Shown in pieces: positions 1 to 55,778 of a DNA stretch of 55,778 bases (the stretch's first letter is position 1; every line of letters starts with the position of its first letter). Below the pieces are notes generated by a model. That model saw only the letters and a program-made list of their open reading frames with translations, was not told the DNA's origin and did no database searches. A program made the position numbers and the translations under genes. Source of the stretch: a virus (lineage: Duplodnaviria; Caudoviricetes); the IMG/VR virus record IMGVR_UViG_3300032215_000092, positions 1-55,778 of that record; one strand, given 5' to 3'.

Positions 1-95
1 CTGGCCGCTGGCTGGCCGCTGGCTGGCCGCTGGCTGGCCGCTGGCTGGCCGCTGGCTGGCCGCTGGCTGGCCGCTGGCTGGCCGCTGGCTGGCCG
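1..95. repeat. 11-bp tandem repeat (CTGGCCGCTGG)n, about 8.6 perfect copies, truncated by the window edge
   Basis: Read directly: 8 full units at 1-88 plus CTGGCCG; the unit length is not a multiple of 3. Confidence 0.97.
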
Positions 96-109
96 TAAAA
101 GTTTTACGG
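93..109. promoter_or_regulatory. Palindromic site CCGTAAAAGTTTTACGG (copy 1 of the dispersed motif)
   Basis: Perfect 8+1+8 inverted repeat; the same core recurs at 50154, 52980 and 55094. Confidence 0.6.
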
Positions 110-206: not shown

Positions 207-236
207 TTGACACTGCCCACCCACCCCCTCTAATAT
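207..236 (+). promoter_or_regulatory. Candidate sigma70 promoter for the packaging operon
   Basis: TTGACA (207-212), 18-bp spacer, TAATAT (231-236) upstream of terS. Confidence 0.45.
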
Positions 237-24847: not shown

Positions 24848-24854
24848 GGTCCGG

Positions 24855-24875: not shown

Positions 24876-24882
24876 TATCTAT

Positions 24883-28536: not shown

Positions 28537-28538
28537 AC

Positions 28539-28868: not shown

Positions 28869-28870
28869 GT

Positions 28871-32413: not shown

Positions 32414-32422
32414 GGAAGCACC

Positions 32423-33433: not shown

Positions 33434-33442
33434 GGACTAGAT

Positions 33443-41200: not shown

Positions 41201-41352
41201 ACCCCGAGAAGGGTTTGCGGATTACTTCTGAGACGCTTGCCGCCTCGGCCCGCACCCGTGCCAAGCAGAGCAAGGAAACCAAGGCCGGTATCTACCTCTC
41301 CAAGCCATTCCGTCAGCGTTTTGCCGAAGTGCCGGTATACGCAGAGGAATAA
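35278..41352 (+). CDS. Large polyvalent/ejection protein with a zincin metallopeptidase-like domain
   Basis: 2024 aa, last late gene; HEIVH plus downstream 'SEFLAE'; Gly/Ala membrane-like N-terminal region; helical C-terminal region. Confidence 0.75.
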   Translation: MKIVNVPGAGPLSFPDSESDDSIYAKIAKIQEHLKQVDLATRPDPRDIPFSRVASNAFNRTGRGLGITAFNELPALGASLFGEDETAARLLDEGIAKRRALEEKYPTSQASFEGIRGLSDTGKFLLESGVEAVPTVAAIAGTGGIGALAGRGAAKYGVEAALARAAAQRGVGVEAAEAAAAAARSKATQTGLDVGLGAGSFGLNAPETFAGVYEETGKLAPGTAIGIGALKAALDGVLPARLLNQLGARGQAKLAEEIASRSTIVPDSFKLRLAKEIGKTAATEGVTEGVQEALDIFAEQLSGAPGGFSDPKNVDRMLLAAAKGAIGGTTIGAPGALVQTMRETPAKQPEYSLDETKKADSVGPGPAENLAAAMAKLKSTEGITEDEFNLLVENKVLTPESRASVKFAAPRTDPALEEQTNQATLEDAAQADQVAQAAAAQASLQQQQQQNQQAQQQQEQAQQQQQQNQQQQAQEAADLQAKQQAASEAAMAQREAEAQDRAAATQQAQQNVQPNAQPNVQADATPAPTVNPPSGASTAVSSEPGAGVPPAGVATSPPPRVAPAEQPSQQVGVGETAQPHPVAKPNQPFYDNRRIMVVADVNGTRVPFYLSTGRGNKQTVPSGKWYPFFGYGKDGWINKGTEEDINNFYGSPALKAKAEELNSTLGDIRHLDPAKGDLPFAWDGVSPIADWRKSNSLVVNPNEGFTPVNYDDVHEQGNKRYWDNILGTISKVERVPLEEAVNKVESKLESKPAQVTEEGAYEPVNDQFSIPREEFARALGIKSHGKTWMATEHNAELESAVIKGDMPAVIKALLGSKHPVVRDIARRAQAMERFIPSERVKVKLDDGRLREQEDFKGYPPGSIAGMFDSGPNTVFVNPVYAGSEHTIAHEIVHALTERIIKTPIPGRQLEAVNRLKKLYKDVLAKAEAVYKTKNIKELPYGLKSPSEFLAEGLSNPEFQYLLAALPHESKTSLWTQFVQAIADMLGLRDTSALTELLDIYSAMLQEGPPSPTKTAAESTKSFLIGVPPQNNNYPLAADDLPDNAKVPPTVSTPPAATPQRGVDLAMQGPANSYLKAATDSELYINAMDQVGRSALSLQPLWYIADTARKLGFKQIGAIENALRKAGAMKNTILKSSSDFMTKALAIAKSDPVGKKAMDAFVNRASDLAIDVTLSKDPSPEFIQARPDSVADYISLRAEYDKLHPKFQKLASDLVDQYRQFRNEYFTALKRSIHDQYQYDPMRAEKILSGLEEKYKQFNEAYTPFVRIGDYWITYFNPNNGKPVAESYTSLGAQKTRLDELKKAGIVHAQSFKQTDFRKFSYKSGPVNQFFDEIKGDVDKALPIYKDDPAETVDRIREAREDMKERLYQASLLLHPESSMLRQFGLKRKGTAGYIEDTLAAFDHKAPIYASQISQVAYKGQIEHEIDSARKQNASNPDTKMSDIITHVAKIVYGVDTIRADDPLNQIANNVNRLGFTFYMGFNPASALVNLLQTPTVMFPLLAGEFHKLGQSKIMNTLFGSLTKVIGGSVGEQTYGEKLVESAEAKIDAAVAKGKTRAEAIAALPEMERVFLSFRDQGILNAGDPSHDFGSVTKHGSGETSAFGKGTRAFTKYSAIMFQRAEAINREAGALATYQLMKQRLSGKGDMSSQEKYAEAIRKATDMVTRAHGDYQHGLAPKIFLSPTMRVILMFKKFPAHMAALYVRLFKDMFSKADPEVRKVARIQFAGLMGMSGLFAGTMGMPFYYIIRDMMNLMLDDEDDPYDFDFAFYNYLSDMWGQPMANRITRGWLGDLGGDVASKVGYASSPLLGGTKQLPFIGGLLGLRDGKNTASAEDDLKNYVAEAAGASAGMALQIARGVDKLAQGDVYRFLEGVTPMAGLRNITKAIRLSKEGALTTRGEPIIEDVSLTETALQAVGFTPQRLAGQYQLNAWQKDMEKQILDRRQGLINQKFNARAKRDYDTESDINDEISKFNMLNPEKGLRITSETLAASARTRAKQSKETKAGIYLSKPFRQRFAEVPVYAEE

Positions 41353-44259: not shown

Positions 44260-44260
44260 A

Positions 44261-44503
44261 TCACCACTCGATATTGTGGAAGTCTGATATTAGTTCTTGA
44301 ATCCTCGGTAAGTGAAGGTTCTTGTTAGGAAGCGTCCGTCCTGTAAACCACATATAGACAGTCATGCGGGACACTTTGAGATGACGGGCAACTTTAGCGG
44401 CGGGGATGTCACGATCAACACAGAGCAAGCCAAGTCTCACACCCAATTTTTCGGGGTCAGCTTTCTTGACTTGATCTACAAATTTTATGCTGTAGCCAAG
44501 CAT
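44261..44503 (-). CDS. Helix-turn-helix DNA-binding protein
   Basis: 'AAKVARHLKVSRMTVYMWFTG'; ATG at 44503 with AGGA RBS. Confidence 0.8.
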   Translation of the reverse strand: MLGYSIKFVDQVKKADPEKLGVRLGLLCVDRDIPAAKVARHLKVSRMTVYMWFTGRTLPNKNLHLPRIQELISDFHNIEW

Positions 44504-44518
44504 GATGGTCCTTGAAGG

Positions 44519-44547
44519 GGAGATGTAAAGCAATGCTTTACATCTCC
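44519..44547. promoter_or_regulatory. 14-bp perfect inverted repeat (operator or hairpin) between the RHH and HTH genes
   Basis: GGAGATGTAAAGCA-A-TGCTTTACATCTCC. Confidence 0.65.
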
Positions 44548-44554
44548 AGAGGTC

Positions 44555-44857
44555 TTAATGAGCGAGGCCGTTCGCCCCCACCCTGCGTGCGTCTGCTTTA
44601 GCTTTAGCCGCAACCGCGAGCCTGAGTCCCTGCTCCCGCATCTGAGCCCGACGCTCAGGAGAGATTAACATAGGCCGACGCTCTTTCTTCTCGGTAAAGT
44701 CCAACGCCTTTGGGGCCACCGTCCCGTTCTTGGCTTCGTAGGTCGAGGCCCAGTAAGCGAGTTGCTGATTAAACGTACGTATCTCGATTGCGGCGATCCC
44801 CGCAATCTTCTTGGCGATTTGCTCTTCAATGATCAATTTTACTTTTGGCTGTTTCAT
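44555..44857 (-). CDS. Ribbon-helix-helix-like DNA-binding protein (putative)
   Basis: 'KVKLIIEEQIAKKIAGIAAIEIRTFNQQLAYWA' resembles the Arc/ParD-like RHH pattern; basic tail. Confidence 0.5.
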   Translation of the reverse strand: MKQPKVKLIIEEQIAKKIAGIAAIEIRTFNQQLAYWASTYEAKNGTVAPKALDFTEKKERRPMLISPERRAQMREQGLRLAVAAKAKADARRVGANGLAH

Positions 44858-44915
44858 GATTACTCAAAGTTAAGGAAATGCCGGGTAGGACCCAACCCGG
44901 CGTGGGTTCGGACTC

Positions 44916-45803
44916 TTATTCCTCGTCGTCCCAGCGGCTCATAACATCATCAGCCGTTTTGGGTTTCGGAGCTTCGGGCTTGGCGCGTTTGATAGGCGGT
45001 TTGATTGGAGGAGTAGCTTCCTCTTCCTCCTCTTCAACTTCAGGGGCGGGTGAGGCTTTCGGTTTCTCCTTCGGGGTTACGCCCGAAGTAGCGCCGTCAG
45101 TTTTGGCGGGGGTGAATGCAATTGCATTCTGTGCATCTTGCGTCTGCCCCTTGCCCTGCACGATCTCCCACTCCGACTCCTCCAAAGGACGCACTGCCTT
45201 GAAGAAAAGTTTAGGAGTAGCCGAGTCCGTATCGAACCGCATCTCGGTCACGACTGCGGTGATAGGAACCGAGTGTCCAGCCAGATAGCGCGTGTACGCT
45301 TCCAGCGGGAGCTTGCCACCTTCAGGCTTGCCGAACAGCGACGTGGCTGGGATAACAAGCTGATATACATCACCTTCGATATCGTTTGCCAACACCACTG
45401 CCAGACGGTGCGAGAACCGGCAAGCGCGTGACGTACCCTGCCCACTACCTGCGATATTCTGCGGACAGTTTGCACAGGTCTTTGCCTGAGGTTTTTCAGA
45501 CTCGGCGTCTGGCTTGACCCCATCGTTGCTGAAACATGCGGGAAGAACTTTCTCCCCTTCCTCATAGACCCCAGCGTAGAACGTGCGGCTATGTGAAGGC
45601 GCGGCGGCGGCAATCACCACCTGCATGAAGCGATCATCAGACTTGGCAATCTCTTGCCCACCAACGATCATACGAAACACCGACCCACGGATCGAAATCC
45701 GCTTAGCCTGTGAGCCACCCATGAGGGCTTTCGTGGTGCTATCCATCTGCATAGAACGCAGGTAGGATGGCAGGTTTCCCTTGAATAGAGCTAGTTCGCT
45801 CAT
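44916..45803 (-). CDS. ssDNA-binding/annealing protein (putative)
   Basis: Replication-module position; 'CANCPQN..GS...RAC' Zn motif; acidic/Pro tail ending WDDEE. Confidence 0.55.
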   Translation of the reverse strand: MSELALFKGNLPSYLRSMQMDSTTKALMGGSQAKRISIRGSVFRMIVGGQEIAKSDDRFMQVVIAAAAPSHSRTFYAGVYEEGEKVLPACFSNDGVKPDAESEKPQAKTCANCPQNIAGSGQGTSRACRFSHRLAVVLANDIEGDVYQLVIPATSLFGKPEGGKLPLEAYTRYLAGHSVPITAVVTEMRFDTDSATPKLFFKAVRPLEESEWEIVQGKGQTQDAQNAIAFTPAKTDGATSGVTPKEKPKASPAPEVEEEEEEATPPIKPPIKRAKPEAPKPKTADDVMSRWDDEE

Positions 45804-46189
45804 TTTGATGCTCTCCTGACAGTAATGTCATAGCGGTTATCGACGTTCAGACCCTTGGGCATCAGATTGGGATTCTCTTGGAGAAACTCTTTCATGTTGC
45901 CCTGATGAATGCGCTTTTCCAGAAGGCCAAGCTCACCCGAATTTGCGACTAGCTCGTACATCGCGTCCCAGTCCGAAGTCCAGTAGCGAGTCCTAACCGT
46001 TCGCATCACCGTGCCGCCACTCGTTTTCAAAGTGTCTGCGCCGGTATCCTTGCAGATCTCTAGAAGCTGGTGGGAGATGACCTCCAACTGCTCCGCAAGC
46101 TCTGCGTCTTCCTCTTCAAATTTGCTCTTTAGAGCGTTACGGGCGTCGCGTATCTTGACGTACACCCTTGCTAACTTGTCTGCTGACAT
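45800..46189 (-). CDS. Conserved replication-module protein
   Basis: Coiled coil then 'LKTSGGTV...DWDA...P.GL'; AGGAG RBS. Confidence 0.65.
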   Translation of the reverse strand: MSADKLARVYVKIRDARNALKSKFEEEDAELAEQLEVISHQLLEICKDTGADTLKTSGGTVMRTVRTRYWTSDWDAMYELVANSGELGLLEKRIHQGNMKEFLQENPNLMPKGLNVDNRYDITVRRASK

Positions 46190-46214
46190 TTGTTTTCTCC
46201 TCTAGTGAGTTGAC

Positions 46215-46243
46215 ACTGTACACCGACTATTTGGCAGTGTCAA
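46215..46243 (-). promoter_or_regulatory. Sigma70 promoter for the downstream replication genes
   Basis: - strand TTGACA (46243-46238), 17 bp, TACAGT (46220-46215). Confidence 0.65.
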
Positions 46244-47789
46244 GCACTTCTTCACGATAGAGACCAACTATTTTTGCGTGTACGTCCTCGCGCTCACGGA
46301 GCATCTTGTAGATCTTGCGCTCGACCGAGCTTCCAACAATGTGGATGACGGTCACGGGGTGCTTCTGCCCAGCCCTATGCACCCGAGCGTTCGCTTGTAG
46401 GTATGTCTCTAAGGACATCGTGGGTCCGTACCACACCACCGTATCAGCGGCAGTAAGTGTTACCCCATGCGCGGCGGCTTGGGGTTGGATGATCAGAACC
46501 TTGGGGTCTGGCGTGGTCTGAAAGGTCTTAAATATGTCAGTCCTCTTCCCTGCCGACACCGCGCCTGATATAACTTCCGAGGTAAACCCGTCTTTGGAAA
46601 GGTGCTCTTGGACTAGCTCAATAGCGTTCTTGAAGGGGACGAACACCAACACCTTGTTGCTTGTCTCTGTAATAATTTCAGACAACACGTTCAGCCGCGA
46701 CGATGCGTCGAAGTTCACGCTTTCTCTTGAGTCTGTGTACACCGTGCCACACGCCATCTGGAGTAGCTTGTTCATAAGAACTGCGGCGTTGACTGCACTA
46801 ATCTCCTCGTCAGCAGCGGAGACCATGTTGTGGACCAGCATACTTTTGTAGTACGCCTGTTGTGTCTTGGTCATCGGTACGTCTCGGTCAACGTACGTCA
46901 TATCGGGCAGGTCTAGGCAGTCGGCTTTCAAGAATCGGATCGCTGGCTGCAACACCCTGTGCACAATATCTTTAGCGTTGTCCCTTGGCAGGTAGCGGTA
47001 CTGCGTCAGGCGGTACATCACCATATCGCGGAACACCCCTGCAAACTTAGGCACGTTGGTTGGGTTGACCAGACGGGCTAGACCGAATGCGTCCACGGGA
47101 GATTGCGCGGCGGGTGTGCCTGTGAGCATCCACAACCAGCGGTTCTGATTGACCAGCCGGTTCATAGCCTTCCAACGCTTGGTGGTTGCAGTCTTGTATG
47201 CGGACGCCTCGTCGATGACGATCAGATCAAACTCAGCCGCATCAATTTCTTTCTCGACGATCTCGATACCGTCGTAGTTGATGATGACGAACTCAGCGCC
47301 ACCGTCTATAATCTTCCTGCGTTTTTCTGGAGAGCCATGCGCCACGTCCACCGTGCGGTGCATAGCAAACTTAAAGAGGTCCGACTGCCATGCCGATTGC
47401 ATGATGGACAGGGGGCATACCACCAAGACCCTACGCAGGAAGCCTAGTGACATGAGGTAGTCAGCCGCCCAGATTACGCTACCCGTTTTGCCCGTGCCCT
47501 GCTCGTTGAAGCAGAAGGCACGCTTGTGCATGGTCAGGAACGCGGCGGTTTCTTTTTGGTGGGCGAAGGGCCTGTACACTCCCGGCCACTTGTAGTCCCG
47601 TTCGATGGGACTAGGTACGTTCTTTATCTTTAAGATCTTTAGCGCATGTATCTCAGGTATGCCCCACGGCACTAGCACCTGCGATATACCGTCTACTTCG
47701 TTTACTAGCTTACTTGTTTTTATTGCATCTAGAACTCTATCGGGCCTATTGAGATTAAGTAGTAGGCCCTTCCCCTCTAGTATTTCCAT
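46227..47789 (-). CDS. SNF2-family (SF2) helicase
   Basis: 'EQGTGKT', 'IDEAS', 'LTGTP', 'HGVTLT', 'QANARVHRAGQ'. Confidence 0.92.
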   Translation of the reverse strand: MEILEGKGLLLNLNRPDRVLDAIKTSKLVNEVDGISQVLVPWGIPEIHALKILKIKNVPSPIERDYKWPGVYRPFAHQKETAAFLTMHKRAFCFNEQGTGKTGSVIWAADYLMSLGFLRRVLVVCPLSIMQSAWQSDLFKFAMHRTVDVAHGSPEKRRKIIDGGAEFVIINYDGIEIVEKEIDAAEFDLIVIDEASAYKTATTKRWKAMNRLVNQNRWLWMLTGTPAAQSPVDAFGLARLVNPTNVPKFAGVFRDMVMYRLTQYRYLPRDNAKDIVHRVLQPAIRFLKADCLDLPDMTYVDRDVPMTKTQQAYYKSMLVHNMVSAADEEISAVNAAVLMNKLLQMACGTVYTDSRESVNFDASSRLNVLSEIITETSNKVLVFVPFKNAIELVQEHLSKDGFTSEVISGAVSAGKRTDIFKTFQTTPDPKVLIIQPQAAAHGVTLTAADTVVWYGPTMSLETYLQANARVHRAGQKHPVTVIHIVGSSVERKIYKMLREREDVHAKIVGLYREEVLDTAK

Positions 47790-47795
47790 GCTCTC

Positions 47796-48062
47796 TCACT
47801 TGTTCTTCTTGACCGTGTGGTCAGAATTTCTTTGGAAGGATCGGTTGTCGCTTGGGCTCACTAAGCGTAGGTTACCCTTTGCATTAGTCCCTCCTTTAGA
47901 GAGGGGCTTGACATGATCAATGTCTTTTCCGGTTCTGTCAACCCCTTCCGCATCCATTTCGCGCCGTGCCCTAGCACGGGCGGCACGTGGGGCTTTCTCG
48001 TCACGCTTCTGCTCCATCTCCCACTCGTGTTTGTAGGGACGGGGCTTCTTGGTGTAGGGCAT
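47796..48062 (-). CDS. HNH endonuclease
   Basis: 'DIDHVKPLSKGGTN...NLRLVSPSDNR'; ATG at 48062. Confidence 0.85.
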   Translation of the reverse strand: MPYTKKPRPYKHEWEMEQKRDEKAPRAARARARREMDAEGVDRTGKDIDHVKPLSKGGTNAKGNLRLVSPSDNRSFQRNSDHTVKKNK

Positions 48063-48063
48063 T

Positions 48064-48744
48064 TTAGTTTCTTCCGTTGTGTGGGCAGATCGCCACTGGG
48101 CAATATTTATGGCAGGTGAAGTTAGGCTTGGGGTTCCACACATCGTTAGCGTAGGCTTCCTTTAGTGGGACGTAGCTATCCCGAGTCTCCTGCATAAGCC
48201 GAGCCACGGAAGATTCTCTATGGTACTTGCGTTTCACCAACTCGTTGGCTACTACGAAGATCAGCGCGGCCTTGATGACCCTGACGCCGGGGAAGTGTGC
48301 GAACGTAGCTAGAGCAAGCAAGTCTAACTGTACGGTGTCCGCGTAGCGGGAAGTCTTTCCCGTCTTGTAGTCAATTACTCTGGAGAGTTCTCCGTTGACT
48401 ACGATCAAATCTGCTATGCCCCGCCACCACACTTCGGGGTCATGGAATGTGCAGGGCGTGCCGTCTTCACGCAACCCCATCTTATACTCTGCGTGCTTGT
48501 CACCCTCGTACGCATCAATATTGTTCATGTACCCCTCCATGTATTTATACTGGGGAGGGATAGGTTTTTTCTTAGTGATGTAGTCTTCGGCGGCTTTGTG
48601 TACGGCACTGCCGTATAGCAACGCTTCAGTCTCTTTGTCCTTGAAGTCCTTCTGAACCTTCAGGTGGTAATACTTTTTGGGGCACTGCTTGAATAGCGAC
48701 ATCCCGCTGTATGACCACGAGATGGGTTTCTCAAGAATCTGCAT
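48064..48744 (-). CDS. PD-(D/E)XK exonuclease (Cas4/RecB-like)
   Basis: 'WSYS...CP', 'G...H', 'RGIADL...IDYKTG', 'QL', C-terminal 'CHKYCPV..C'. Confidence 0.85.
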   Translation of the reverse strand: MQILEKPISWSYSGMSLFKQCPKKYYHLKVQKDFKDKETEALLYGSAVHKAAEDYITKKKPIPPQYKYMEGYMNNIDAYEGDKHAEYKMGLREDGTPCTFHDPEVWWRGIADLIVVNGELSRVIDYKTGKTSRYADTVQLDLLALATFAHFPGVRVIKAALIFVVANELVKRKYHRESSVARLMQETRDSYVPLKEAYANDVWNPKPNFTCHKYCPVAICPHNGRN

Positions 48745-50566
48745 AAGTTGGGCCGCATCCTATTTCGCAATCTACGGGTAATCCATTAGCCCACTTAGGA
48801 ACCCAGCGCATACATTCCTGAACATACGCCATCGCCTCGATAGACTCCTGCTCTGGAACAATTATAGACACTGCATCATGTACTGTCAAGGCCGGACGGT
48901 ACTTCTTAGCGATCCTCAGCATTTGCTCACCCACAATGATCCGGGCAAGGGCTTGAACCACGTTCTCCACCAGCTTACCACCGTAGAGTTTCACGTTCTT
49001 CTCACGCAACGTGCTGTACATCCAGCCATCGTAAGGACTGGATCTGAGGTCGTCGTACTCAATCTTCATGGTGTTGGGCAGGATGACGTACTTGTTCCCT
49101 ACCTCCAGCAAGTCGCCCCTACCGAACGTCCAGCCCGTGGAGGTAGCCATATAATGTATGGCTCTGTCAGCAACTCTCCACAGATTCACAATCTTGGGAT
49201 TGACGCCCCGGTACACTTGAATAATGCGCTCGGCCTCGGCCATGGTGATCTTTGTCTCTTGTTTGAGAGACAACATGTGATGAAACTTGTCGTGCCCCAT
49301 GCCGTACCCGCACCCGAGGATCACGGTCTTACCAAAAAATCTTTGCTCCTTGGTGATTTTGGTGACCGGTGTTTGGTAGATCTTAGATGCCATGATCTTG
49401 TAGACATCCTCGCCGTTAGCGAAGGAGGTCACCAAGTCATTCTGATTAGCCAGCCACGCGAGGGTCCGCGCCTCGATCTGCGAGGAGTCGCACGAGATGA
49501 TGACGTGCCCTGCCGGTGCGCGGAGAGACTTCTTTAGGGCGGAAGCGTTACCCCTACTAGGTAGGTTCTGCATATTAAGTTTGTCAGACCCACCCCATCT
49601 GCCGGTGTGAGCTGCGTAGTATTTAAGAGGGACTGGCAGTAGGCCCCGCTTGCCTATGCCAATGAACCGCTCGGTGCGAGACTCCTCGATAGTCGTCTTG
49701 ACCCCAAGCCGCGCAGCCACCACCGCTTGCACCCGCAGGTCAGGATGCTCAAGAAGATCCTGCAAACCTTGGTCTGTCTTGGCAAAGGCGTAGGTCACCT
49801 TGCCGGTAGTGGGGGATATTTTGGTAGGCGGCACAATACCAAGTAGGCACAGTATCTGTGCAAACTTCGGGTTGCTCATCACGTCCTCAAGGTTTATGTC
49901 GGCGTCCTTGAGTAGCTTCGCCTTGTTCTCCCGCACTTTGATGAGGTGGTCTTCCAGCAACGGCACGTCCACCTCAAGAGTCGGCTCGGTAAACATACGG
50001 ATCGTGAGGTCGATCAGCTTGAGTTCTTTTAGAGGGAACTCCTCAAACGTAAAGTCCTCGTTGGCACGGAAGGTGTACATCCGTGTATATAACCCAGCGG
50101 TAAGATCCACATCGTTTCGGCAGTACGACATGTACCGCTCCATCTCCATATGTGTAAAACTTTTACGTGTTTTACCCAATGCGTTAATTACCTCGTCCCC
50201 TTTTGTACCTATCTTGAACCACGTGGCTAGGTGAGCTAGTCCGACCCTGCACCGCGTCCCCAATAACGCTTGAGCCATCGACATAGTGTCAGCCCAAGCC
50301 TTCGGGTAAATCTCAAAGTGCCACGCCATAATTGCCGCATCAAAAAGCGCATTGTGAGCACAGGCGAGGGAATTCCCCCAATCGAACTGTTGTAGCCAAT
50401 CCTTCGTCTCGGCACGCGTACCAGAGAAGCTCTGCGTTTCCTCATCGTCCACTTTAACCGCCACGCCGATGACTTCAAACCTTGGGTCACGTATGTACTC
50501 CTCAGTAGACATTTTGGAGAGACTGAAGTCTCGGTCGTAGTAGGTTTCAAAATCTATTGTTATCAA
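48731..50566 (-). CDS. polA: DNA polymerase family A with 3'-5' exonuclease
   Basis: Exo 'IDFET', 'HNALFD', 'YCRND'; 'HTGRW', motif A 'DSSQIEAR', motif B 'RFFGKTVILGCGYG', motif C 'VHD'; likely TTG start at 50566 overlapping the upstream TGA. Confidence 0.93.
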   Translation of the reverse strand: MITIDFETYYDRDFSLSKMSTEEYIRDPRFEVIGVAVKVDDEETQSFSGTRAETKDWLQQFDWGNSLACAHNALFDAAIMAWHFEIYPKAWADTMSMAQALLGTRCRVGLAHLATWFKIGTKGDEVINALGKTRKSFTHMEMERYMSYCRNDVDLTAGLYTRMYTFRANEDFTFEEFPLKELKLIDLTIRMFTEPTLEVDVPLLEDHLIKVRENKAKLLKDADINLEDVMSNPKFAQILCLLGIVPPTKISPTTGKVTYAFAKTDQGLQDLLEHPDLRVQAVVAARLGVKTTIEESRTERFIGIGKRGLLPVPLKYYAAHTGRWGGSDKLNMQNLPSRGNASALKKSLRAPAGHVIISCDSSQIEARTLAWLANQNDLVTSFANGEDVYKIMASKIYQTPVTKITKEQRFFGKTVILGCGYGMGHDKFHHMLSLKQETKITMAEAERIIQVYRGVNPKIVNLWRVADRAIHYMATSTGWTFGRGDLLEVGNKYVILPNTMKIEYDDLRSSPYDGWMYSTLREKNVKLYGGKLVENVVQALARIIVGEQMLRIAKKYRPALTVHDAVSIIVPEQESIEAMAYVQECMRWVPKWANGLPVDCEIGCGPTYADS

Positions 50567-50826
50567 GTGTTCTTCTCCCTGAGTTTGGCTTCGATTGCTT
50601 TGGCGTAATCCTCTTCCCATCCAACGCAACTATTAAATCCAATTACTTTGCTAGTAATTGCACTTAACTCCTCATCCGTCAGCCCGACCCACTCGCGTTT
50701 TTGTTCTTTTAACGCAATGTTTTTCTTCATCAACAAGTTAATTGTTTCAATCTGCGAATGCATTGATGCGTGGCACCTCTCCACTTCATATCGCAGGAAG
50801 TCAACTTCGTGTGTGTATTGGTTCAT
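50563..50826 (-). CDS. Hypothetical protein with a WVGLT..E / EAKLREKN C-terminal module
   Basis: ATGA overlap; shares its C-terminus with the neighbour. Confidence 0.65.
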   Translation of the reverse strand: MNQYTHEVDFLRYEVERCHASMHSQIETINLLMKKNIALKEQKREWVGLTDEELSAITSKVIGFNSCVGWEEDYAKAIEAKLREKNT

Positions 50827-51059
50827 GTGTTCTTCTCCTTCAGCCTCGCCTCAAGCGCGGCTATCATGTCTATGACATACGGTCGATTCGCAAGGCTGAT
50901 TTCTTTAGCCTCTTCTTTAGTTAGTCCAACCCACGGTTTCTTTACATGCGCGGCGACAAGGGCCGCAAAGCTATCAAGATATGGGTCAAACCAATTTAAG
51001 TCCCACGATCCGGGAATTTCCGCCTCCCGCGCCATGCGGATGATGTCTTCTTTGTTCAT
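50823..51059 (-). CDS. Hypothetical protein with a WVGLT..E / EARLKEKN C-terminal module
   Basis: 'MNKEDIIRMAREA...FAALVAA' N-terminus; ATGA overlaps. Confidence 0.65.
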   Translation of the reverse strand: MNKEDIIRMAREAEIPGSWDLNWFDPYLDSFAALVAAHVKKPWVGLTKEEAKEISLANRPYVIDMIAALEARLKEKNT

Positions 51060-51202
51060 ATTAGTGCGTCCGGTACGTTAGATATATCCAGCTTTGGTTT
51101 GCGCTGGCGTTTAATTTTCTCAACCACGTGCGGGTATGGCGGGGGATGCCATACCCACCGGATTACCTTGCCTTCATCGTCAAGGATTCCGTATCTCTTC
51201 AT
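51056..51202 (-). CDS. 48-aa hypothetical protein; not in the ORF track
   Basis: Hand-translated MKRYGILDDEGKVIRWVWHPPPYPHVVEKIKRQRKPKLDISNVPDALI; fills the gap with an ATGA overlap. Confidence 0.55.
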   Translation of the reverse strand: MKRYGILDDEGKVIRWVWHPPPYPHVVEKIKRQRKPKLDISNVPDALI

Positions 51203-51542
51203 TCGGATCTACCATAGCTTCAAAAAGCGCCGACTGCACGTTGTATGATAAATCTTCTAGCTGATCATGGCGTAGAACTTCAAACTCCACGTTGCCCCTA
51301 GTTCTTAGACACATTTCATTCTCAGCATCGGCCCATACTTTTTTCCAGCCTTCATTCCAATCGGTCATGTCGTACCAGCCAAGATAAGCCGACACTCCTT
51401 CATCCCTTCCAATCATGTAAAACCGAACCTTGCCGTTTTTGTTTGGTATTCCGTTCATGTGTTTTTCCCTTTCATCTAAACATTTCTGCCAAGTTTCGTT
51501 AACCCAATCCTTCATCTCAGCGCGAGATATTGGCTTGCTCAT
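51180..51542 (-). CDS. Hypothetical protein
   Basis: ATGA overlap with the upstream gene. Confidence 0.55.
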   Translation of the reverse strand: MSKPISRAEMKDWVNETWQKCLDEREKHMNGIPNKNGKVRFYMIGRDEGVSAYLGWYDMTDWNEGWKKVWADAENEMCLRTRGNVEFEVLRHDQLEDLSYNVQSALFEAMVDPNEEIRNP

Positions 51543-51772
51543 GTGTCCACCCACGTTCCGTCAAGCCACTCATCAAGCATTGTGTGAAGCTTCGCTCGTT
51601 GCCGTTCTCCAACCGTCCGACCATCGTCGGTTACAAGGTCACTCGCAACAAATTGTTTAATGTCACCTTGCCCAGAGAATGCAATGTAATTGTCTGTTGT
51701 CTTAATGATAAGTGAACCAATGGGTTTTGATGCACCGTTCACCAATGCGACGCTTTTTTCTTTATTCACCAC
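51539..51772 (-). CDS. Hypothetical protein
   Basis: GGAGG RBS, GTG start, tight packing. Confidence 0.55.
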   Translation of the reverse strand: MVNKEKSVALVNGASKPIGSLIIKTTDNYIAFSGQGDIKQFVASDLVTDDGRTVGERQRAKLHTMLDEWLDGTWVDT

Positions 51773-51993
51773 CCAGCCTCCTTCTGCACTTCTCTAAGTT
51801 TCTGCTTGTAGTGCAAGCATTTGCCCGCGTCGTTAGAATCTTTTAGTCCTTGACGCATGGCGTACTTAATGATGTTGCCTTTTAGGAACCCTATAAATTC
51901 CTCGGTACTCAGCACGGTTTCTATAACATCCCATGGCGGGATGCCCATCTCTTTGTAGTGATCACCATCAATTTGAAAATCATCTGCTTTCAT
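51766..51993 (-). CDS. DUF3310 (SaV-like) protein
   Basis: 'Q.DGDHY...GFLKGNIIKY..R.G.K...D..KC.HY'. Confidence 0.8.
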   Translation of the reverse strand: MKADDFQIDGDHYKEMGIPPWDVIETVLSTEEFIGFLKGNIIKYAMRQGLKDSNDAGKCLHYKQKLREVQKEAGW

Positions 51994-52235
51994 TTTTTAT
52001 CCCTAGACATCTGACCAGCCAAAAACGCTGCTTTGTATGCTCCGTCGTTGGTATTAGCCCGCAGCAATTGTTCTTTGAGGTACTTAATCTCAACCTGAGA
52101 TTGTCTATCTGCCGTATCCCACCCTGCCGTAAACGCATCATGCGCGTGTCCTTCCATCGGATGGTATCCACCCATCGGAATGTTCTGCCCGTGAGTTTCT
52201 GTCCACCATTTGCGCCACGCTTCACCTTTAGTCAC
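51990..52235 (-). CDS. Hypothetical protein
   Basis: GTGA/ATGA overlaps; 'AFTAGW', 'AFLAG'. Confidence 0.55.
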   Translation of the reverse strand: MTKGEAWRKWWTETHGQNIPMGGYHPMEGHAHDAFTAGWDTADRQSQVEIKYLKEQLLRANTNDGAYKAAFLAGQMSRDKK

Positions 52236-52513
52236 GATAATTTTCCTCGTATTAATTTAGTCCAAGACATTGCCCGTAAAGCTTTTACATCTTCAGCGGA
52301 TCGTCGCCCAACAAACTCACCCTGAACCGTTTTGAAAGTAGTTTGTGGGTAAGCGCACCTATTTTGCTCAGCCATCTTGTCCCTGTATTCAGGGGTACAG
52401 TCTTCGCAGTATGAGTGAGCCGGTGATGGGTGAGCCCCCCTCGCAGCTATGACCCATAATTTGAATTCTTTATAGTCGTTGAAACAGCGCGGCGTTTCAG
52501 GTTTTTCTTTCAT
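52232..52513 (-). CDS. Cys-containing hypothetical protein
   Basis: 'PRCF...YCEDCTPEY...RC'. Confidence 0.6.
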   Translation of the reverse strand: MKEKPETPRCFNDYKEFKLWVIAARGAHPSPAHSYCEDCTPEYRDKMAEQNRCAYPQTTFKTVQGEFVGRRSAEDVKALRAMSWTKLIRGKLS

Positions 52514-52734
52514 GAGAACCTGATCTTGCTAATCCAATCATTGACGGGATTTTGCGGAGCAATCTTTTCATACTTCATCACTGCCCCAAGAGACTGCAAT
52601 TCTCCTAAAGTTTTATATTCACCGCCGTAAGTTGCCCAGCATTTATTAAACTTTACATGTGGTGTGTACATGGCATTACCCAAGTAAAAGCATGGTTGTA
52701 GGGTGCGTGCGTATAGGTCTTTTGGTTTGGTCAT
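52510..52734 (-). CDS. Hypothetical protein
   Basis: Operon packing. Confidence 0.5.
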   Translation of the reverse strand: MTKPKDLYARTLQPCFYLGNAMYTPHVKFNKCWATYGGEYKTLGELQSLGAVMKYEKIAPQNPVNDWISKIRFS

Positions 52735-52736
52735 TT

Positions 52737-52958
52737 TTAGGCTCTCGGAACTGGCGATGTTTGGGCTTTGGCGCGAGCGTCCTCAATCCGAATCTCGTCC
52801 CACTGCGCGATCAGGATCGCGGCATGTAGATCAAGAAGTTCGGCAAGCATCTGCTTGACTAGCCCCTCGGCGTGGTAAATACGATTTTCATTGAGCGTAT
52901 CTTTTAGGGCAATCGCCATGTGCTCAATGTTAATCAGGGGTTCACTCCAATCCTTCAA
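52737..52958 (-). CDS. Hypothetical protein
   Basis: GGAG RBS, TTG start, operon packing. Confidence 0.5.
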   Translation of the reverse strand: MKDWSEPLINIEHMAIALKDTLNENRIYHAEGLVKQMLAELLDLHAAILIAQWDEIRIEDARAKAQTSPVPRA

Positions 52959-53235
52959 AGCTACTCTCCAGTTGTTCGCGTAAAACTTTTACGCTGTTCA
53001 CACAAAAAGAAAGGCCACCCGCAGAACGGATGGCCTTCAAGTTTTTCTCCTGTAGTGCGGTAGGCTGGTTGTTGCCAGCCTTGCACTCGATACCTACAAA
53101 GTTCCCATACACACACGCAACTATGTCAGGTACGCCCGAGCGACCGTAGCCGCCCGTGACGGGGAAGAAATAGTATGCGCCTAGTTCATCAAGGTAGGCT
53201 GTTACCTCCTTCTTTACTTTCCCTTCCGGTGTCAA
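52942..53235 (-). CDS. VRR-NUC domain nuclease
   Basis: 'PEGKVK...GVPDI....G.FVGIECKA...TALQ'. Confidence 0.88.
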   Translation of the reverse strand: MTPEGKVKKEVTAYLDELGAYYFFPVTGGYGRSGVPDIVACVYGNFVGIECKAGNNQPTALQEKNLKAIRSAGGLSFCVNSVKVLREQLESSFEGLE

Positions 53236-54175
53236 GCAATTCTCCTAAGTCTTCACCGATGAAGCCATAGCGCGTAAGCCAATCGCAATCAGCCTCGTGC
53301 CGAAACCCCACCATCTTTGCCTCATCCCCTGTGCCCAATTGCAACAGAGCGAGCTTACTTTGTACCACGTCAGGTAGCGCGTCGATACTAGGGAAATCCC
53401 TAATTGTGCGATCAACCTTGTCCGTGGTTCCGGTGCCCCCGGTGAACGTCCGATGGTGTGTGATCATGCGGTACAAGGATTCTCCGCCCGGCGGGAGTTC
53501 TTGAAGAGTTACCCAAAGATCTCTTAGAAGCGCTTGCTCCATGCGCTGATCCTGCACCTTGTCGTACGCGGCAAGGTACTTATGGATCTCTTGTTGATCC
53601 GCGCCCGTAGTCTCGCCGCGCATCATCCTAGACACCATATCGTAGCTACTGTTGTAGTAGAGCCCCTGCATAAACTCAGTCAGAACCAGATCCTCTATCG
53701 GCGCAGACTTGCTTACTATCCTGTTGAAATTAGATTCAGTCGCGTGGGCTTGCGCCTCGGCATACGCCTCAGGAGTTTTGTAGTCCAGAAGTTCTACCAG
53801 CTTTTCCGCCTTGGGCCTAGTGCTTGAGCGCTTAACATCTGAGGGAGACTTCTTGTTCCTGATCCTGCGACTCGACACCTCTGCCTGTAGCGTGTCGCGC
53901 ACCATGCCACTAGGTCTGAACACACCAAACGTACCAATGTGCATACCTGCTTGCATCACCGGAATTGTCTTGTTAGGGCGTACCTCAAAGTAGATCGCGG
54001 GGTCTGTGTACGTCACACGCATGGCGTCGATCAACCAGATCAACGGTTGATGGAAAACCCTGTCGTTCCAGATGTCAGCACCGGCCACCTCTTCGATAAT
54101 CTCTTGAGTCCCTACCTTGCGGAGCGTGGTAAGGGTGAAATAGTGGTGGCGTTTGCCTTTGTGAAGTATGGTCAT
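53189..54175 (-). CDS. Hypothetical protein
   Basis: 328-aa ORF with AGGAG RBS. Confidence 0.65.
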   Translation of the reverse strand: MTILHKGKRHHYFTLTTLRKVGTQEIIEEVAGADIWNDRVFHQPLIWLIDAMRVTYTDPAIYFEVRPNKTIPVMQAGMHIGTFGVFRPSGMVRDTLQAEVSSRRIRNKKSPSDVKRSSTRPKAEKLVELLDYKTPEAYAEAQAHATESNFNRIVSKSAPIEDLVLTEFMQGLYYNSSYDMVSRMMRGETTGADQQEIHKYLAAYDKVQDQRMEQALLRDLWVTLQELPPGGESLYRMITHHRTFTGGTGTTDKVDRTIRDFPSIDALPDVVQSKLALLQLGTGDEAKMVGFRHEADCDWLTRYGFIGEDLGELLDTGRESKEGGNSLP

Positions 54176-54193
54176 GATCTCTATCTCCTAAAA

Positions 54194-55078
54194 TTAAAAT
54201 GCAAACTTACTCAAGATGTCTTCGACTTGTGTACGTACATCGAAGCGTACTGCTTTCGAGTCCCGTAAATCTTTTACAGAAACACCGGCAAGGGCGGCGG
54301 CAAGACCAGCACGGGCTCCCTCCAACTTGGTGTCGTTGGTGATGTTCATACTGTCGAGCGTGTCGATCAACTCGTTAGCCTTCTCGATCATGGAGGCATG
54401 GAACACCTTGCGGTCACCCTCCTCCCCGTCAGTCAGTCGGTCAACCAGATGCTTGAGCACGTCATGCAGTCGTGACCATGCGTCACCCATAGCCGCGCCC
54501 ACCTGCTTGTCATATAGCTGACGGTAGTGCTCGTTGAGTTCGTCACGGATCTGCATCTCACAGTCAACACGAAAGTCGCCCGTCTCCGGCACGGGCCAGA
54601 AGCTGACCTCCATGTAAAACTTTCTCTCAATATGCTCAACCTCTGGGTACTCGTTGCGGTCAAACATACCGCCAAGTTGGAACGCGGCGGCAGACACCAT
54701 GGTTGGGTAGCAGACCACTAGCTCCTTCTTCAGATCGTTGTACTTGGCGATCCAAGAATCAGCCTCTGCCTTGTAGTCGAAGAACCGCTTCATGGGTAGC
54801 AAGCGTGGGCCGGTGTCTGCCCATGGCAGGGTGAGGTGGTAGTGCCGGTTGCGCGTGTTAGCTACAAACTTGTTGATCAGATCAAGCTGATGTGCACCTG
54901 CCAGTAAGTTCTTATGGTAGTTACCGGCACGTCCTTGCGTGTTGTTCTGCTTGTCTACGTCCTCGCTCACTTTGCGGTCTAGCTTGCGAGCGGTCCAGTT
55001 GCCTACGCTGAGGTTGACCAGCATGGCGCTGGATGCGATGGATGGACCGAAGGTTGGGGTCGTGATAGTTGAAGTCAT
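54194..55078 (-). CDS. Conserved phage protein (DUF3150-like), typical neighbour of vWA/MoxR genes
   Basis: 'AMLV.L.V..WTARKLD...TLPW...G.RLLP...EYP...DFR'. Confidence 0.6.
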   Translation of the reverse strand: MTSTITTPTFGPSIASSAMLVNLSVGNWTARKLDRKVSEDVDKQNNTQGRAGNYHKNLLAGAHQLDLINKFVANTRNRHYHLTLPWADTGPRLLPMKRFFDYKAEADSWIAKYNDLKKELVVCYPTMVSAAAFQLGGMFDRNEYPEVEHIERKFYMEVSFWPVPETGDFRVDCEMQIRDELNEHYRQLYDKQVGAAMGDAWSRLHDVLKHLVDRLTDGEEGDRKVFHASMIEKANELIDTLDSMNITNDTKLEGARAGLAAALAGVSVKDLRDSKAVRFDVRTQVEDILSKFAF

Positions 55079-55218
55079 GATGTGCTCTCGTCTGTAAAAG
55101 TTTTACGTAAGATTGATTTAAGTATTGCTGAGTTGCTGTCGTCGTGCCCCGTGACACGGAGCAGAGCCACCTCGTCGATGTACTCTGCCTCGATGCCAGA
55201 CAGGGCAAGTAGTGCCAT
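55075..55218 (-). CDS. Small hypothetical protein; start uncertain
   Basis: Fills the gap, ATGA overlap with the next gene. Confidence 0.4.
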   Translation of the reverse strand: MALLALSGIEAEYIDEVALLRVTGHDDSNSAILKSILRKTFTDESTS

Positions 55219-55241
55219 AAGTTCTTCTCGTGTGTGCTCTC

Positions 55242-55778
55242 CTACATATTCACTGATTGACCGTACGGGGGCTTCCACCCCTTGTTCTGAGTCACTACCC
55301 AGAGTGTTGGCGCGAGACCTGTCCATAAATCTTCCTCACATCGTCCGATATACCCGTCGGTCAGGATGACCACGCACACGGGGTCCATGCGTTCCTTCTT
55401 AATATAGACGGGGATGCAGTCGGGGTCAGTCCCCCCGCCACCCTTGGGCTTGGTCGTGTTGACGATAGACCCGAGCATGTCCTGCGAGTACACCTCGTGC
55501 GAAGCGATCTTGGTATCCCAGTACAGAAGATCGACACACTCAGGCACGACATCCGTACAGATAGCGACAAGCTCAGAGAAGAACTCAGCAAGCTCTGCGC
55601 TACCGATGGACCCGGACGTATCAATACACACGACAATGCGACCAAGAGTGACGGACTCCATGCTAGGCATGATGATGTCGTTGTGTAAGAACCTACGGTT
55701 GGGCTTGCGCCACGTAGACCGATCACGCCCTGCCGCCACTGCCTTGCACCACTGACGGAACACCTCCTTCCAGTCAAC
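55242..55778 (-). CDS. vWA-domain protein (DUF2201-like), 5' truncated by the window
   Basis: MIDAS 'IDTSGSI', 'GGGGTD', 'ILTDGY'; frame is open to the window edge. Confidence 0.85.
   Translation of the reverse strand, partial: VDWKEVFRQWCKAVAAGRDRSTWRKPNRRFLHNDIIMPSMESVTLGRIVVCIDTSGSIGSAELAEFFSELVAICTDVVPECVDLLYWDTKIASHEVYSQDMLGSIVNTTKPKGGGGTDPDCIPVYIKKERMDPVCVVILTDGYIGRCEEDLWTGLAPTLWVVTQNKGWKPPYGQSVNM

Follow-up and report, generated by a model that had tools for sequence, protein, structure and literature searches.

A palindrome repeated across the early arm of the window

The distal early arm of the window, the 55,778-nt stretch of phage DNA analysed here, spans 50154..55778 on the minus strand and encodes a vWA/DUF2201 protein (cut by the contig end), proteins of 83, 294 and 328 aa, a VRR-NUC-like protein, nine small ORFs and the start of a family-A DNA polymerase (PolA). 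It holds five of the six copies of a 13-bp palindrome, GTAAAASTTTTAC. Four of the six copies are perfect and two carry one mismatch, and all were found where an earlier note on this DNA had placed them.

The 83-aa ORF (55075-55326, minus strand) carries one perfect copy (55094..55106; sites are given without strand) in its final codons, 15 nt ahead of the ATG of the 294-aa gene. The 294-aa gene itself has a one-mismatch copy (54265..54277, GTAAAAGATTTAC on the sense strand) in the codons for its C terminus, with the next start 89 nt on; the identical variant is found in 5/5 genomes of the clade, with variable flanks. The 3' end of the VRR-NUC-like 97-aa gene (52942-53235, minus) holds another perfect copy (52980..52992), 21 nt before the next listed start, and the relatives G001, G002, G004 and G005 keep both this copy and the one at 55094..55106. 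The second one-mismatch copy (52276..52288), altered in its innermost pair, lies at the 3' end of a 93-aa ORF (52232-52513, minus), 40 nt before the next listed start; among the genomes compared it occurs in the window only. These four copies at ORF 3' ends agree with the earlier description. The last early-arm site, a perfect copy (50154..50166), lies about 155 codons into the PolA gene (48731-50629, minus), and its 13-mer is identical in 6/6 clade genomes.

The remaining perfect copy (copy 1, 95..107, C...G flanks) is situated in the control region that separates the early arm from the late-side genes. It is the homologue of the relatives' first site. In the relatives that site precedes the -35 box of the main early promoter by 6-8 bp and is followed by TTGACA-N17-GATAAT; window positions 95-1200 align to the relative G005, and the alignment starts exactly at the first site of G005. 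Copy 1 adjoins an 11-bp tandem array (CTGGCCGCTGG x 8.6, 1..95, no strand assigned) that reaches the contig end. This array occupies the place of the relatives' early promoter and first early gene, and the assembly probably broke there. We read a sigma-70-like promoter (TTGACA-N18-TAATAT, 207..236, plus strand) about 100 bp from copy 1, facing the terminase/late operon. Its counterpart in G005 scores 11/12, and the locus L091 has TTGACA-N17-TATCAT on the minus strand (2185-2157).

The palindrome is the commonest of the dispersed, non-tandem 13-mers of the window. No perfect copy occurred in any of 100 dinucleotide-preserving shuffles of the window, against four observed, and copies with at most one mismatch numbered six against 0.07 expected (maximum 1 per shuffle). 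Allowing two mismatches adds three sites (14182, 31700 and 54614) where 1.22 are expected, so two-mismatch copies are inseparable from chance. We also ran the codon-preserving shuffle that the earlier note had proposed, permuting synonymous codons inside each of 23 early ORFs, and none of 300 replicates matched the coding counts. Over 41419-55778, three perfect copies were observed (shuffle mean 0.13, maximum 1) and five copies with at most one mismatch (mean 0.81, maximum 3). The pyrimidine 5' and purine 3' of the core were borne out in 6/6 copies, which extends the element to 15 bp. Translation confirmed that the coding copies are read in two frames (RKSFT and RKTFT versus VKVLR, VKALR and VKDLR), and we judge the proposal that selection acts on the DNA and not the protein to be supported. 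No copy with at most one mismatch lies within 108-50153, so the late genes are free of the motif; the view that it marks the early arm is likewise supported.

Close relatives share the motif and other members of the family carry their own

Five close relatives share the window's motif. More than 599 PolA-related stretches of this phage family are held in IMG/VR, and among 80 PolA-related loci the motif was present in four, which are the four closest to the window (81-93% identity), and in 0/76 others. DNA runs holding parts of the stretch are mostly labelled as freshwater or lake water, labels that by themselves are not evidence of habitat.

The whole records of four relatives contained 14, 14, 1 and 7 copies, and a reversed control pattern gave 0. 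In G005 (61,337 bp, 97% complete) 12/12 copies fall within 44084-57874, that is, in 13.8 kb, and in G002 13 of 14 fall within 21844-34425. The central base on the sense strand is G or C, varying by copy, and C...A flanks are frequent in the window's clade. The first site of G002 stands behind a strong terminator, 8 bp ahead of a -35 box, and that of G005 between divergent promoters.

The earlier note had pointed to enriched palindromes in relatives as a test of the motif. Such palindromes were found: among 76 loci gathered via the 294-aa protein, 61 had at least three perfect copies of some palindrome in the early region. Only 4 of these 61 use GTAAAA-N-TTTTAC, and several of the remaining 15 loci have longer or even-length inverted repeats. 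The spacer between the palindrome arms differs by clade (1, 2, 3, 4 or 6 nt). The cultured Rhizobium phage RHph_TM3_14A carries GTTACC-N6-GGTAAC, with 12 perfect copies and 33 with at most one mismatch in 45.9 kb, and the right arm of its palindrome overlaps the Shine-Dalgarno (SD) sequence. In 40 loci with palindromes of the form TTC....N....GAA, the genome's own core was present at 311/313 sites. Cores nevertheless differ between phages whose 294-aa proteins are 98.6-99.0% identical. In the collinear pair L125 and L120 (83-93% nucleotide identity) syntenic sites were switched in 5/5 cases, and one alignment (A1) pairs homologous promoters, leaders and gene starts with different cores.

The early arm is strongly mosaic across relatives, and cassettes of promoter, leader and palindrome recur within one genome. 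Many sites are found in transcribed leaders, about 65 nt after consensus sigma-70 promoters. An SD-preceded start lay within 30 nt of 95/337 unique sites (28%) compared to 190/1685 control positions (11%); 196/337 unique sites had no start codon within 60 nt. The layout recurs in related phages, with a palindrome of their own. In the window's clade and its relatives the sites are genuine and conserved, they keep to the early arm, and they are of one type per genome, a type that switches from one close relative to another.

The first early protein co-varies with palindrome type

We compared phage pairs with at least 90% identical 294-aa proteins, split by palindrome type. The first early protein (F5) was 78% identical in same-type pairs (51 pairs) versus 53.5% in different-type pairs (46 pairs); for the neighbour proteins F2, F12 and F4, identity was the same in both classes. 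Between types, the maximum identity of F5 was 0.71 in its central segment versus 0.91 in its N- and C-terminal parts, and 10 of the 11 type-separating residues lie at positions 65-103. The central segment is modelled as two helices (59-70 and 75-91) followed by a basic linker, and the helices bear type-specific residues. F5 co-varies with palindrome type via this central helix-turn-helix-like segment. In a TACTGTC-type phage, the first early protein matches the F5 central segment alone (hhalign probability 93%, E 2.4e-7). F5 evolves fast even inside one palindrome type and its gene is linked to the first site, so part of the co-variation could be mosaic linkage.

Within the window's own clade, motif type does not vary. 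The positional counterpart of F5 in this clade is an unannotated 233-aa protein (F132), and the motif lies about 93-107 bp upstream of its gene, the first early gene, in 8/8 contigs that encode it. The F132 gene would fall in about 7 kb absent from the window. Modelled as a homodimer with ESMFold2, the 233-aa protein gave an ipSAE of 0.44 (median of three runs) versus 0.00 for the best of three controls, contacts agreeing by at least 91% between runs and partner pLDDT being at least 82. Among proteins of solved structure, 20/30 homomeric pairs and 1/23 single chains reached the ipSAE mark used. These predictions support, rather than demonstrate, a symmetric homodimer.

Neither F5 nor the 233-aa protein had a match above threshold in Pfam or PHROGs or matched a known DNA-binding family or fold; fold searches reached E-values of 3.3 and 0.25 at best with Foldseek and a Z of 5.5 at best with VIA-align. 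Comparison of the two with hhalign (E 0.19 and 0.072) established no homology, so the candidacy of the 233-aa protein rests on position, co-occurrence and the predicted dimer. Other clade-specific early proteins are F133, F134, the 328-aa protein and several small ORFs. The most likely binder is the first early protein, from the F5 family in sister clades and F132 here, encoded outside the window.

The earlier note had suggested two binders inside the window. The helix-turn-helix protein at 44261 is not supported as the binder: its predicted recognition helix, VSRMTVYMWF, is nearly constant (VSRMTVYKWF) in a sister clade with a different inverted repeat. The ribbon-helix-helix-like ORF at 44555 fared no better: no relative was detected among the 76 loci, and its Pfam match was sub-threshold only. 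The same note had left the dimeric binder as either a phage or a host protein. A phage-encoded dimer fits best, and a host protein is disfavoured by the switching of the motif between near-identical phages.

DNA recognition and the alternatives

The sites might instead work at the RNA level: a clade-specific phage protein would recognise a small hairpin of the early transcript, immediately 5' of the ribosome-binding site, and so repress or enhance translation, process the polycistronic transcript or load an antitermination factor. Several features agree with such a role: the enrichment 10-35 nt upstream of SD-preceded starts, the many sites in leaders about 65 nt past consensus promoters, the overlap with the Shine-Dalgarno in RHph_TM3_14A, spacers that vary by clade as loops might, and a first gene that co-varies with the site in front of it, as lambda N co-varies with nutL; lambda N/boxB would be the antitermination parallel. 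We nevertheless consider an RNA-level element unlikely. In the imperfect copies we looked for selection for stem pairing and found none. Among 41 distinct one-mismatch variants on the sense strand, a G-U pair was kept in 7, A-C arose in 8 and other mismatches in 26, and only 2/30 two-mismatch variants were compensatory. The sites do not evolve as base-paired hairpins. As RNA, the six window copies form weak hairpins (-1.6 to -7.4 kcal/mol), and two of the six fold no better than shuffles; the copy best positioned before a start codon forms a hairpin of -1.6 kcal/mol (z = 0.09). The C...A flanks of the window's clade are unable to lengthen the stem, the best-conserved site has divergent promoters on either side or a terminator before it, a setting in which little RNA should be made, and the majority of unique sites lack a start codon inside 60 nt. 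As pairing is not preserved, a conserved site stands between divergent promoters, and type is uniform within and switched between genomes, a DNA-binding phage dimer is the best reading.

Three further explanations are more improbable. The palindromes might be recombination sites, identical short linkers at which gene cassettes meet and early genes are shuffled, perhaps with the phage VRR-NUC or HNH protein cutting or resolving them, comparable to the PeSLs (promoter-early stem-loops) of T4-type phages or to integron attC. Sites at gene borders, the mosaic early arm, the repeated promoter-leader-palindrome cassettes and the presence of a VRR-NUC-like and an HNH gene agree with this, but shared linkers cannot explain core differences beside 99%-identical genes or a genome-wide joint switch. 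Copies also lie within conserved coding sequence (PolA and the 294-aa gene), away from cassette borders, 13 bp is very short for homologous exchange, and a search for integrase or resolvase found none in the window, G005 or G002; we regard a recombination role as quite improbable. We think it very improbable that a host nucleoid protein or global regulator, or a ParB/MatP-like organiser, marks or compacts the first-entering DNA through these sites. They are palindromic, dispersed and restricted to one arm, with copy 1 close to the packaging-proximal end, as such a role would have it, but the motif differs between near-identical phages that presumably share hosts, and it matches no host-factor consensus known to us (Fis, Lrp, IHF, LacI-type). 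The parS/matS comparison of the earlier note is not supported: searches for Phage_integrase, Resolvase and ParB_N domains in the window (G000), the nearly complete relative G005 and a third relative (G002) found none, and the sites are tied to promoters and gene starts, with a sequence that changes between near-identical phages. Hairpin promoters for a virion-delivered RNA polymerase, as in phage N4, are the least probable of the explanations considered. N4 early promoters have 5-7-bp stems and 3-nt loops, a geometry that an extruded 5-bp stem with a 3-nt loop would fit; the sites are confined to the early arm, and the 2024-aa ORF (35278-41352), a virion protein that would be the enzyme, matches a virion RNA polymerase PHROG (E 1.3e-14). 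That match, however, spans only profile positions 2081-2254 of 3406, which we take to lie outside the polymerase domain of the N4 enzyme. The ORF matches the C-terminal parts of other giant virion proteins more strongly and has no PDB sequence match to the N4 polymerase (three weak unrelated matches). The early genes are already served by consensus sigma-70 promoters, more than 10 promoters per 13 kb, some intragenic, would be unlike N4, and stem pairing is not under selection in the variants above (26/41 neither G-U nor A-C; 2/30 compensatory).

A model of dispersed operators

We consider it probable that the palindrome (13 bp, or 15 bp with its pyrimidine and purine flanks) serves as operator for a DNA-binding protein that is specific to the clade, encoded by the phage and bound as a symmetric dimer. 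Multi-site operators, for which the earlier note had drawn a comparison with stoperators, are the best-fitting model. One copy lies in the non-transcribed spacer beside the main early promoter, and the others along the early units, in leaders about 65 nt past sigma-70 promoters and just before ribosome-binding sites or, alternatively, at the very end of the gene before. The regulator, for which the first early gene is the most likely source, would occupy all sites once made, dampen its own promoter and halt or slow host RNA polymerase on the early arm, giving a stoperator-like early shut-off by roadblock. Repression is the putative effect, with activation and antitermination as the alternatives; leader sites at about +65 are in an unusual position for a classical repressor, and the enrichment just before start codons is also predicted by a role in RNA.

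More tentatively, and as a possibility on which we would not insist, hypervariable, orthogonal regulator-operator pairs may be carried by the virulent freshwater phages of the family, as an immunity-like specificity system without lysogeny genes. Each pair would comprise a first early protein of an uncharacterised all-alpha family and a palindrome of 13-21 bp that it reads with a swappable segment of about 45 residues, and specificity and about 10 operators would switch together between phages with 99%-identical neighbour genes. If so, the pairs could serve early shut-off as well as competition among co-infecting relatives, by cross-repression or escape.

Comparison with known systems

Lambdoid modules (lambda, 434, P22) have odd-length pseudo-palindromes of 14-18 bp bound by helix-turn-helix dimers and confer heteroimmunity between similar phages. 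The present palindrome has a free central base. Lambdoid operators cluster at two promoters for lysogeny, whereas the sites described here are dispersed over 13 kb. The PeSLs of T4-type phages are repeated promoter-palindrome cassettes between small early genes in a plastic region; they are proposed recombination modules whose stem-loops act as terminators. Unlike the present palindromes, they are not known to have a single uniform sequence per genome with a co-varying protein. Many dispersed operators and one regulator are also a resemblance to phage P1 and Streptomyces phage phiC31, in which one repressor acts at many scattered sites in separate early or lytic units. The phiC31 sites (conserved inverted repeats, CIRs) are palindromic and intergenic, and the C1 operators of P1 are asymmetric; both phages are temperate with known repressors, and we know of no clade-by-clade switching in them on the present scale.

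The stoperators of Cluster A mycobacteriophages (L5 gp71 type) occur in dozens of copies, often in short intergenic gaps, with a motif that is uniform per genome, differs between related phages and changes with the repressor, which blocks elongation as well as initiation (PMC6550527, PMC9283540). The likeness lies in the many dispersed copies within transcription units (6 in the window, 12-14 in fuller relatives) and in a motif that is uniform per genome and differs between related phages; F5, as candidate regulator, tracks palindrome type in sister clades. The differences are that stoperators are asymmetric, follow the direction of transcription and bind a monomeric repressor in temperate phages, whereas the present sites are perfect palindromes in the early arm only. 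No integrase, resolvase or ParB domain was found in G000, G005 or G002, and 185,579 species genomes gave a single hit, on a 9-kb MAG contig. For the candidate regulator, no likeness to any known family of repressors was detected. Coliphage T1 and Citrobacter phage Stevie, which are lytic, carry a mostly intergenic 22-bp repeat in 16-20 copies that the authors liken to stoperators and whose function is given as not known (PMC4319613). These repeats are asymmetric and oriented with transcription, unlike the present palindromes, and the passage that describes them reports no co-varying protein.

If the operator model is true, a large family of uncultured phages holds many natural specificities of one regulator architecture, each with a short palindrome, and its orthogonal repressor-operator pairs would be available as a ready-made library. 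It would also offer a clean system in which to study the joint switching of DNA-recognition specificity and about 10 cis sites, and would extend dispersed-operator control, known in temperate phages, to phages that are apparently lytic. A testable candidate, a protein family without annotated function, comes out of the analysis, and a comparable motif is present in a relative that can be cultured, Rhizobium phage RHph_TM3_14A.

Selection acts on the palindrome as DNA

The palindrome is real and strongly selected. The earlier note had described six copies of the 13-bp motif GTAAAA-N-TTTTAC in the window, four perfect (95-107, 50154-50166, 52980-52992 and 55094-55106) and two with one mismatch (52276-52288 and 54265-54277), each between a 5' pyrimidine and a 3' purine, with the five coding copies read in two frames; coordinates, flanks and reading frames were all correct. 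The four perfect copies compare with zero in any of 100 dinucleotide shuffles, the six copies with at most one mismatch compare with 0.07 expected, and a two-mismatch search of the window added just three further copies (1.22 expected). When the codons of 23 early ORFs were shuffled with their composition preserved (300 replicates), the maximum was one perfect copy, compared to three observed, and three copies with at most one mismatch, compared to five observed. Since the counts exceed those from both codon-preserving and dinucleotide shuffles, the target of selection is the DNA, not the encoded peptides, as the note had proposed. Furthermore, the copy inside the family-A DNA polymerase gene (PolA) is invariant in 6/6 genomes and the one-mismatch copy in the gene for the 294-aa protein, a conserved early-arm protein, is invariant in 5/5, although the flanks of both vary. 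Two in-frame ATG codons lie 4-10 nt downstream of the PolA-internal palindrome (50140-50153, minus strand), presumably between the Exo II and Exo III motifs of the polymerase.

The window shows roughly half of its network

The window is an entire, linear IMG/VR record with a completeness estimate of 88%, and its early and replication arm runs leftward from 55778 down to 41419. The first early gene in the window, encoding a vWA/DUF2201 protein, is truncated by the contig end. It is followed by genes for 83-, 294- and 328-aa proteins, a VRR-NUC-like nuclease and nine small ORFs, then by PolA, a PD-(D/E)XK nuclease, an HNH protein and a SNF2 helicase, then by two unknown proteins, a 100-aa ORF and a 90-aa HTH protein, and lastly by a DUF927 primase-helicase.

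Among 80 loci retrieved with PolA, the motif was present only in the four closest (81-93% identity). Their retrieved stretches contain 13, 9, 1 and 7 copies and their whole records 14 (16.0 kb), 14 (37.4 kb), 1 and 7, while a reversed control pattern gave 0. A fifth relative, G005 (61,337 bp, 97% complete), has 12 copies, all at 44084-57874 and none in the remaining 47.5 kb. Alignment of window 95-1200 to G005 begins exactly at the first site of G005, the other window end aligns about 7.0 kb further along, and the region between them in G005 contains the main early promoter, the first early genes and seven more sites. Thus, the window displays roughly half of its network. Window positions 1-95 consist of 8.6 perfect tandem copies of an 11-bp unit (CTGGCCGCTGG), which run off the contig start and directly adjoin the copy at 95-107. 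This array occupies the place of the relatives' early promoter and probably caused an assembly break in which about 7 kb of the early arm was lost.

Each genome uses one palindrome type, which switches between close relatives

Retrieval with the 294-aa protein yielded 76 loci, 61 of which carry a palindrome in at least three perfect copies in the corresponding region. GTAAAA-N-TTTTAC was found in only four of the 76, all from this clade. The other types include TTCATAC-N-GTATGAA, TTCGTAC-N-, TTCCCAC-N-, TTCATAT-N-, TACTGTC-N-, TCTAGAC-NN-, GTGTGAG-NN-, TCGGGAC-N- and CTGTAA-NN-, among more, and some of the 15 loci scored as having none contain longer or even-length inverted repeats. Loci derived with PolA contributed CTAACA-N-TGTTAG, CTCACA-N-TGTGAG, TTAGGGA-N-TCCCTAA and GTAGTC-N4-GACTAC. 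In one sister clade (L094-L103), a ~27-bp inverted repeat (GACAACCTGAC-N5-GTCAG..TGTC) stands in place of the 13-17-bp palindrome and adjoins shorter CTGACA-N3-TGTCAG sites.

By PolA, the nearest cultured phages are the Rhizobium RHph_TM3_14A group (37% identity, with gene order in common) and Pseudomonas phage KPP25 (34%). Among 50,697 phage records, megablast gave no relevant near-identical phage. RHph_TM3_14A (MN988472.1) carries GTTACC-N6-GGTAAC in 12 perfect copies and 33 with at most one mismatch, and no palindrome reached three copies in the 44 kb of KPP25. The RHph_TM3_14A repeat often ends 2-5 nt ahead of a start codon, on both strands, contains a Shine-Dalgarno (SD) sequence in its right arm (GAGGTAAC) and is also present at late genes.

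Within each genome the core is nearly uniform: of the 313 sites in the 40 loci whose palindromes are of the TTC type, 311 have the core of their own genome. The two exceptions are an ATAT site at 3792 of L118, a CCAC-type locus whose leader is otherwise near-identical to that of L123, and a fully compensatory ATTC/GAAT variant at 11405 of L147. Cores nevertheless differ between phages whose 294-aa proteins are 98.6-99.0% identical. In one alignment (A1), the promoter (TTGACA-N17-TATAGT), leader and gene start are homologous and the core is ATAT, CCAC or ATAC, and in the collinear pair L125 and L120 (83-93% nucleotide identity) 5/5 syntenic sites have switched. One core per genome, switched between close relatives, requires a genome-encoded, trans-acting specificity factor.

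Site positions and the form in which the palindrome is recognized

In the relatives, 6-8 bp separate the first site from the downstream -35 box of a TTGACA-N17-GATAAT promoter; the first site of G005 falls in the spacer of two divergent promoters and that of the relative G002 directly behind a strong terminator. Several sites are 64-65 nt downstream of promoters matching the consensus at 12 of 12 positions, where they follow two leader hairpins and immediately precede AGAGGA and an ATG. The remaining sites, including all five early-arm copies in the window, are within genes or in their final codons. A start codon with an SD sequence lies within 30 nt of 28% of 337 unique sites, compared to 11% of control positions, and 58% of the sites have no SD-preceded start within 60 nt. 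Inspection revealed no -10-like element that follows the sites at a constant spacing, and a MotA-like or leaderless-promoter reading was rejected on this ground. An entire cassette is repeated within relatives (L091, 4721-4830 and 7229-7357; L005, about 1400-1500 and 3300-3400). It starts with a TG-extended sigma-70 promoter that matches the consensus at 12 of 12 positions, continues with an 8-bp hairpin and then a G/C hairpin, and ends with the palindrome, AGAGGA and ATG in that order; such duplicated promoter-leader modules appear to serve early genes.

A palindrome in these positions could in principle play its role at the RNA level, and we consider this improbable. Among 41 distinct one-mismatch variants, 7 create G-U, 8 A-C and 26 other combinations, and compensatory changes account for 2 of 30 two-mismatch variants; these counts indicate that pairing is not what is conserved. 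Moreover, the C...A flanks of this clade are unable to pair, the RNA hairpins of the window are weak, with two of the six no better than shuffles in folding, and the best-conserved site is the first one, where little transcription is expected. Together, the variants, flanks, hairpins and first-site position favour recognition of the palindrome as duplex DNA, putatively by a dimeric protein.

The first early protein is the candidate binder

Candidate specificity factors were sought among 2,639 plus-strand ORFs clustered from the 76 loci and the early arm of the window. A crude ranking of all families by identity within and between types was confounded by phylogeny, and we instead contrasted pairs of phages whose 294-aa proteins are at least 90% identical. 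Identity of family F5, the first early protein of the sister clades (~170 aa), was 78% where both phages shared a palindrome type and fell to 53.5% where the types differed, with no change in families F2, F12, F4, F8 and F9; the figures for F3 are unreliable due to paralogues. F15 also dropped and was set aside as a likely spurious antisense ORF family of low-complexity sequence. The type differences in F5 are concentrated in residues ~59-112: the L125 and L120 proteins are 79% identical overall with nearly all changes in this segment, the maximum identity between types is 0.71 in the centre compared to 0.91 on either side of it, and all but one of the 11 type-separating residues fall at 65-103. 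In an AlphaFold model (pLDDT 80), type-specific residues map to two helices (59-70 and 75-91) that lead into a basic linker. In one subfamily, as read from the alignment, V or T before 'YL' accompanies A or G in TTC(A/G)TAC, and a TACTGTC-type phage has a first early protein with homology to the central segment of F5 alone (probability 93%, E 2.4e-7). F5 had no match in Pfam, PHROG or PDB folds.

F5 is undetectable in the present clade, where its positional counterpart is a 233-aa protein (P0001) with 59 database relatives, every one unannotated; neither protein is encoded in the window, and the gene for the 233-aa protein presumably falls in the missing ~7 kb. In 8/8 contigs encoding the 233-aa protein, the motif lies about 93-107 bp upstream of its gene. 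Its model is all-alpha (pLDDT 78), and a fold search gave no match above noise. Modelling supports a predicted homodimer: the score was 0.44 compared to 0.00 for the best control, a mark reached by 20/30 proteins solved as homomers and 1/23 solved as single chains, and runs shared at least 91% of contacts with a partner pLDDT of at least 82. Compared as profiles, F5 and the clade's 233-aa and 176-aa early proteins showed no significant similarity, and both candidate regulators fell only into unnamed viral clusters of the ESM Atlas. P0001 and L120:6030-6533 share their nearest Pfam-bearing cluster, which consists of DUF3102-containing viral proteins, at scores of 0.77 and 0.84; this hints weakly at a distant relationship between the two families.

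Other clade-specific early proteins are possible binders. The earlier note had named as candidates the HTH protein (44261, 90 aa) and the RHH-like 100-aa ORF (44555). A sister clade that uses another repeat retains the recognition helix of the former, which makes the HTH protein an unlikely reader of a clade-specific palindrome, and the latter had no relatives among the set compared. Host-factor consensuses (Fis, Lrp, TyrR, LacI-type and UP element) were compared with the motif and rejected.

A proposed clade-specific operator network on the early arm

On the best reading, the palindromes form a network of many clade-specific operators along the early arm of a phage that appears to be lytic. 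Three genomes of the clade yielded no integrase, resolvase or ParB, which argues against an ordinary temperate lifestyle, and the missing ParB also speaks against the parS-like role that had been suggested. A protein bound at the palindromes would repress transcription as a roadblock. A new, testable candidate regulator family accompanies the palindrome network.

Systems compared with the network also included P1 C1 operators, phiC31 CIRs, lambdoid immunity modules and T4 PeSLs. The closest analogue comes from Cluster A mycobacteriophages, whose stoperator networks differ in repressor and motif between heteroimmune relatives (PMC6550527; PMC9283540). However, stoperators have an asymmetric, oriented sequence that a monomer reads, and they occur in temperate phages. 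An unexplained, oriented 22-bp intergenic repeat is reported for T1 and Stevie (PMC4319613). In the titles and abstracts of the papers retrieved, including those on KPP25, no description of the palindromes of these phages was found.

Features of the virion gene block

The virion genes form a rightward block (293-41352) that begins with the terminase (293-2276) and closes with a 2024-aa ORF (35278-41352, plus strand). The C-terminal ~800 aa of this ORF match the ends of giant phage proteins, including a PHROG annotated as DarB-like (E 8e-60), and its residues 861-1016 match a PHROG with the annotation virion RNA polymerase at profile positions 2081-2254. The ORF has no detected polymerase domain. 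A 159-bp tandem repeat (30383-30965; 3.7 copies, 89% matches) lies within a 1186-aa ORF (28853-32413) and probably encodes a repetitive fibre or adhesin domain.
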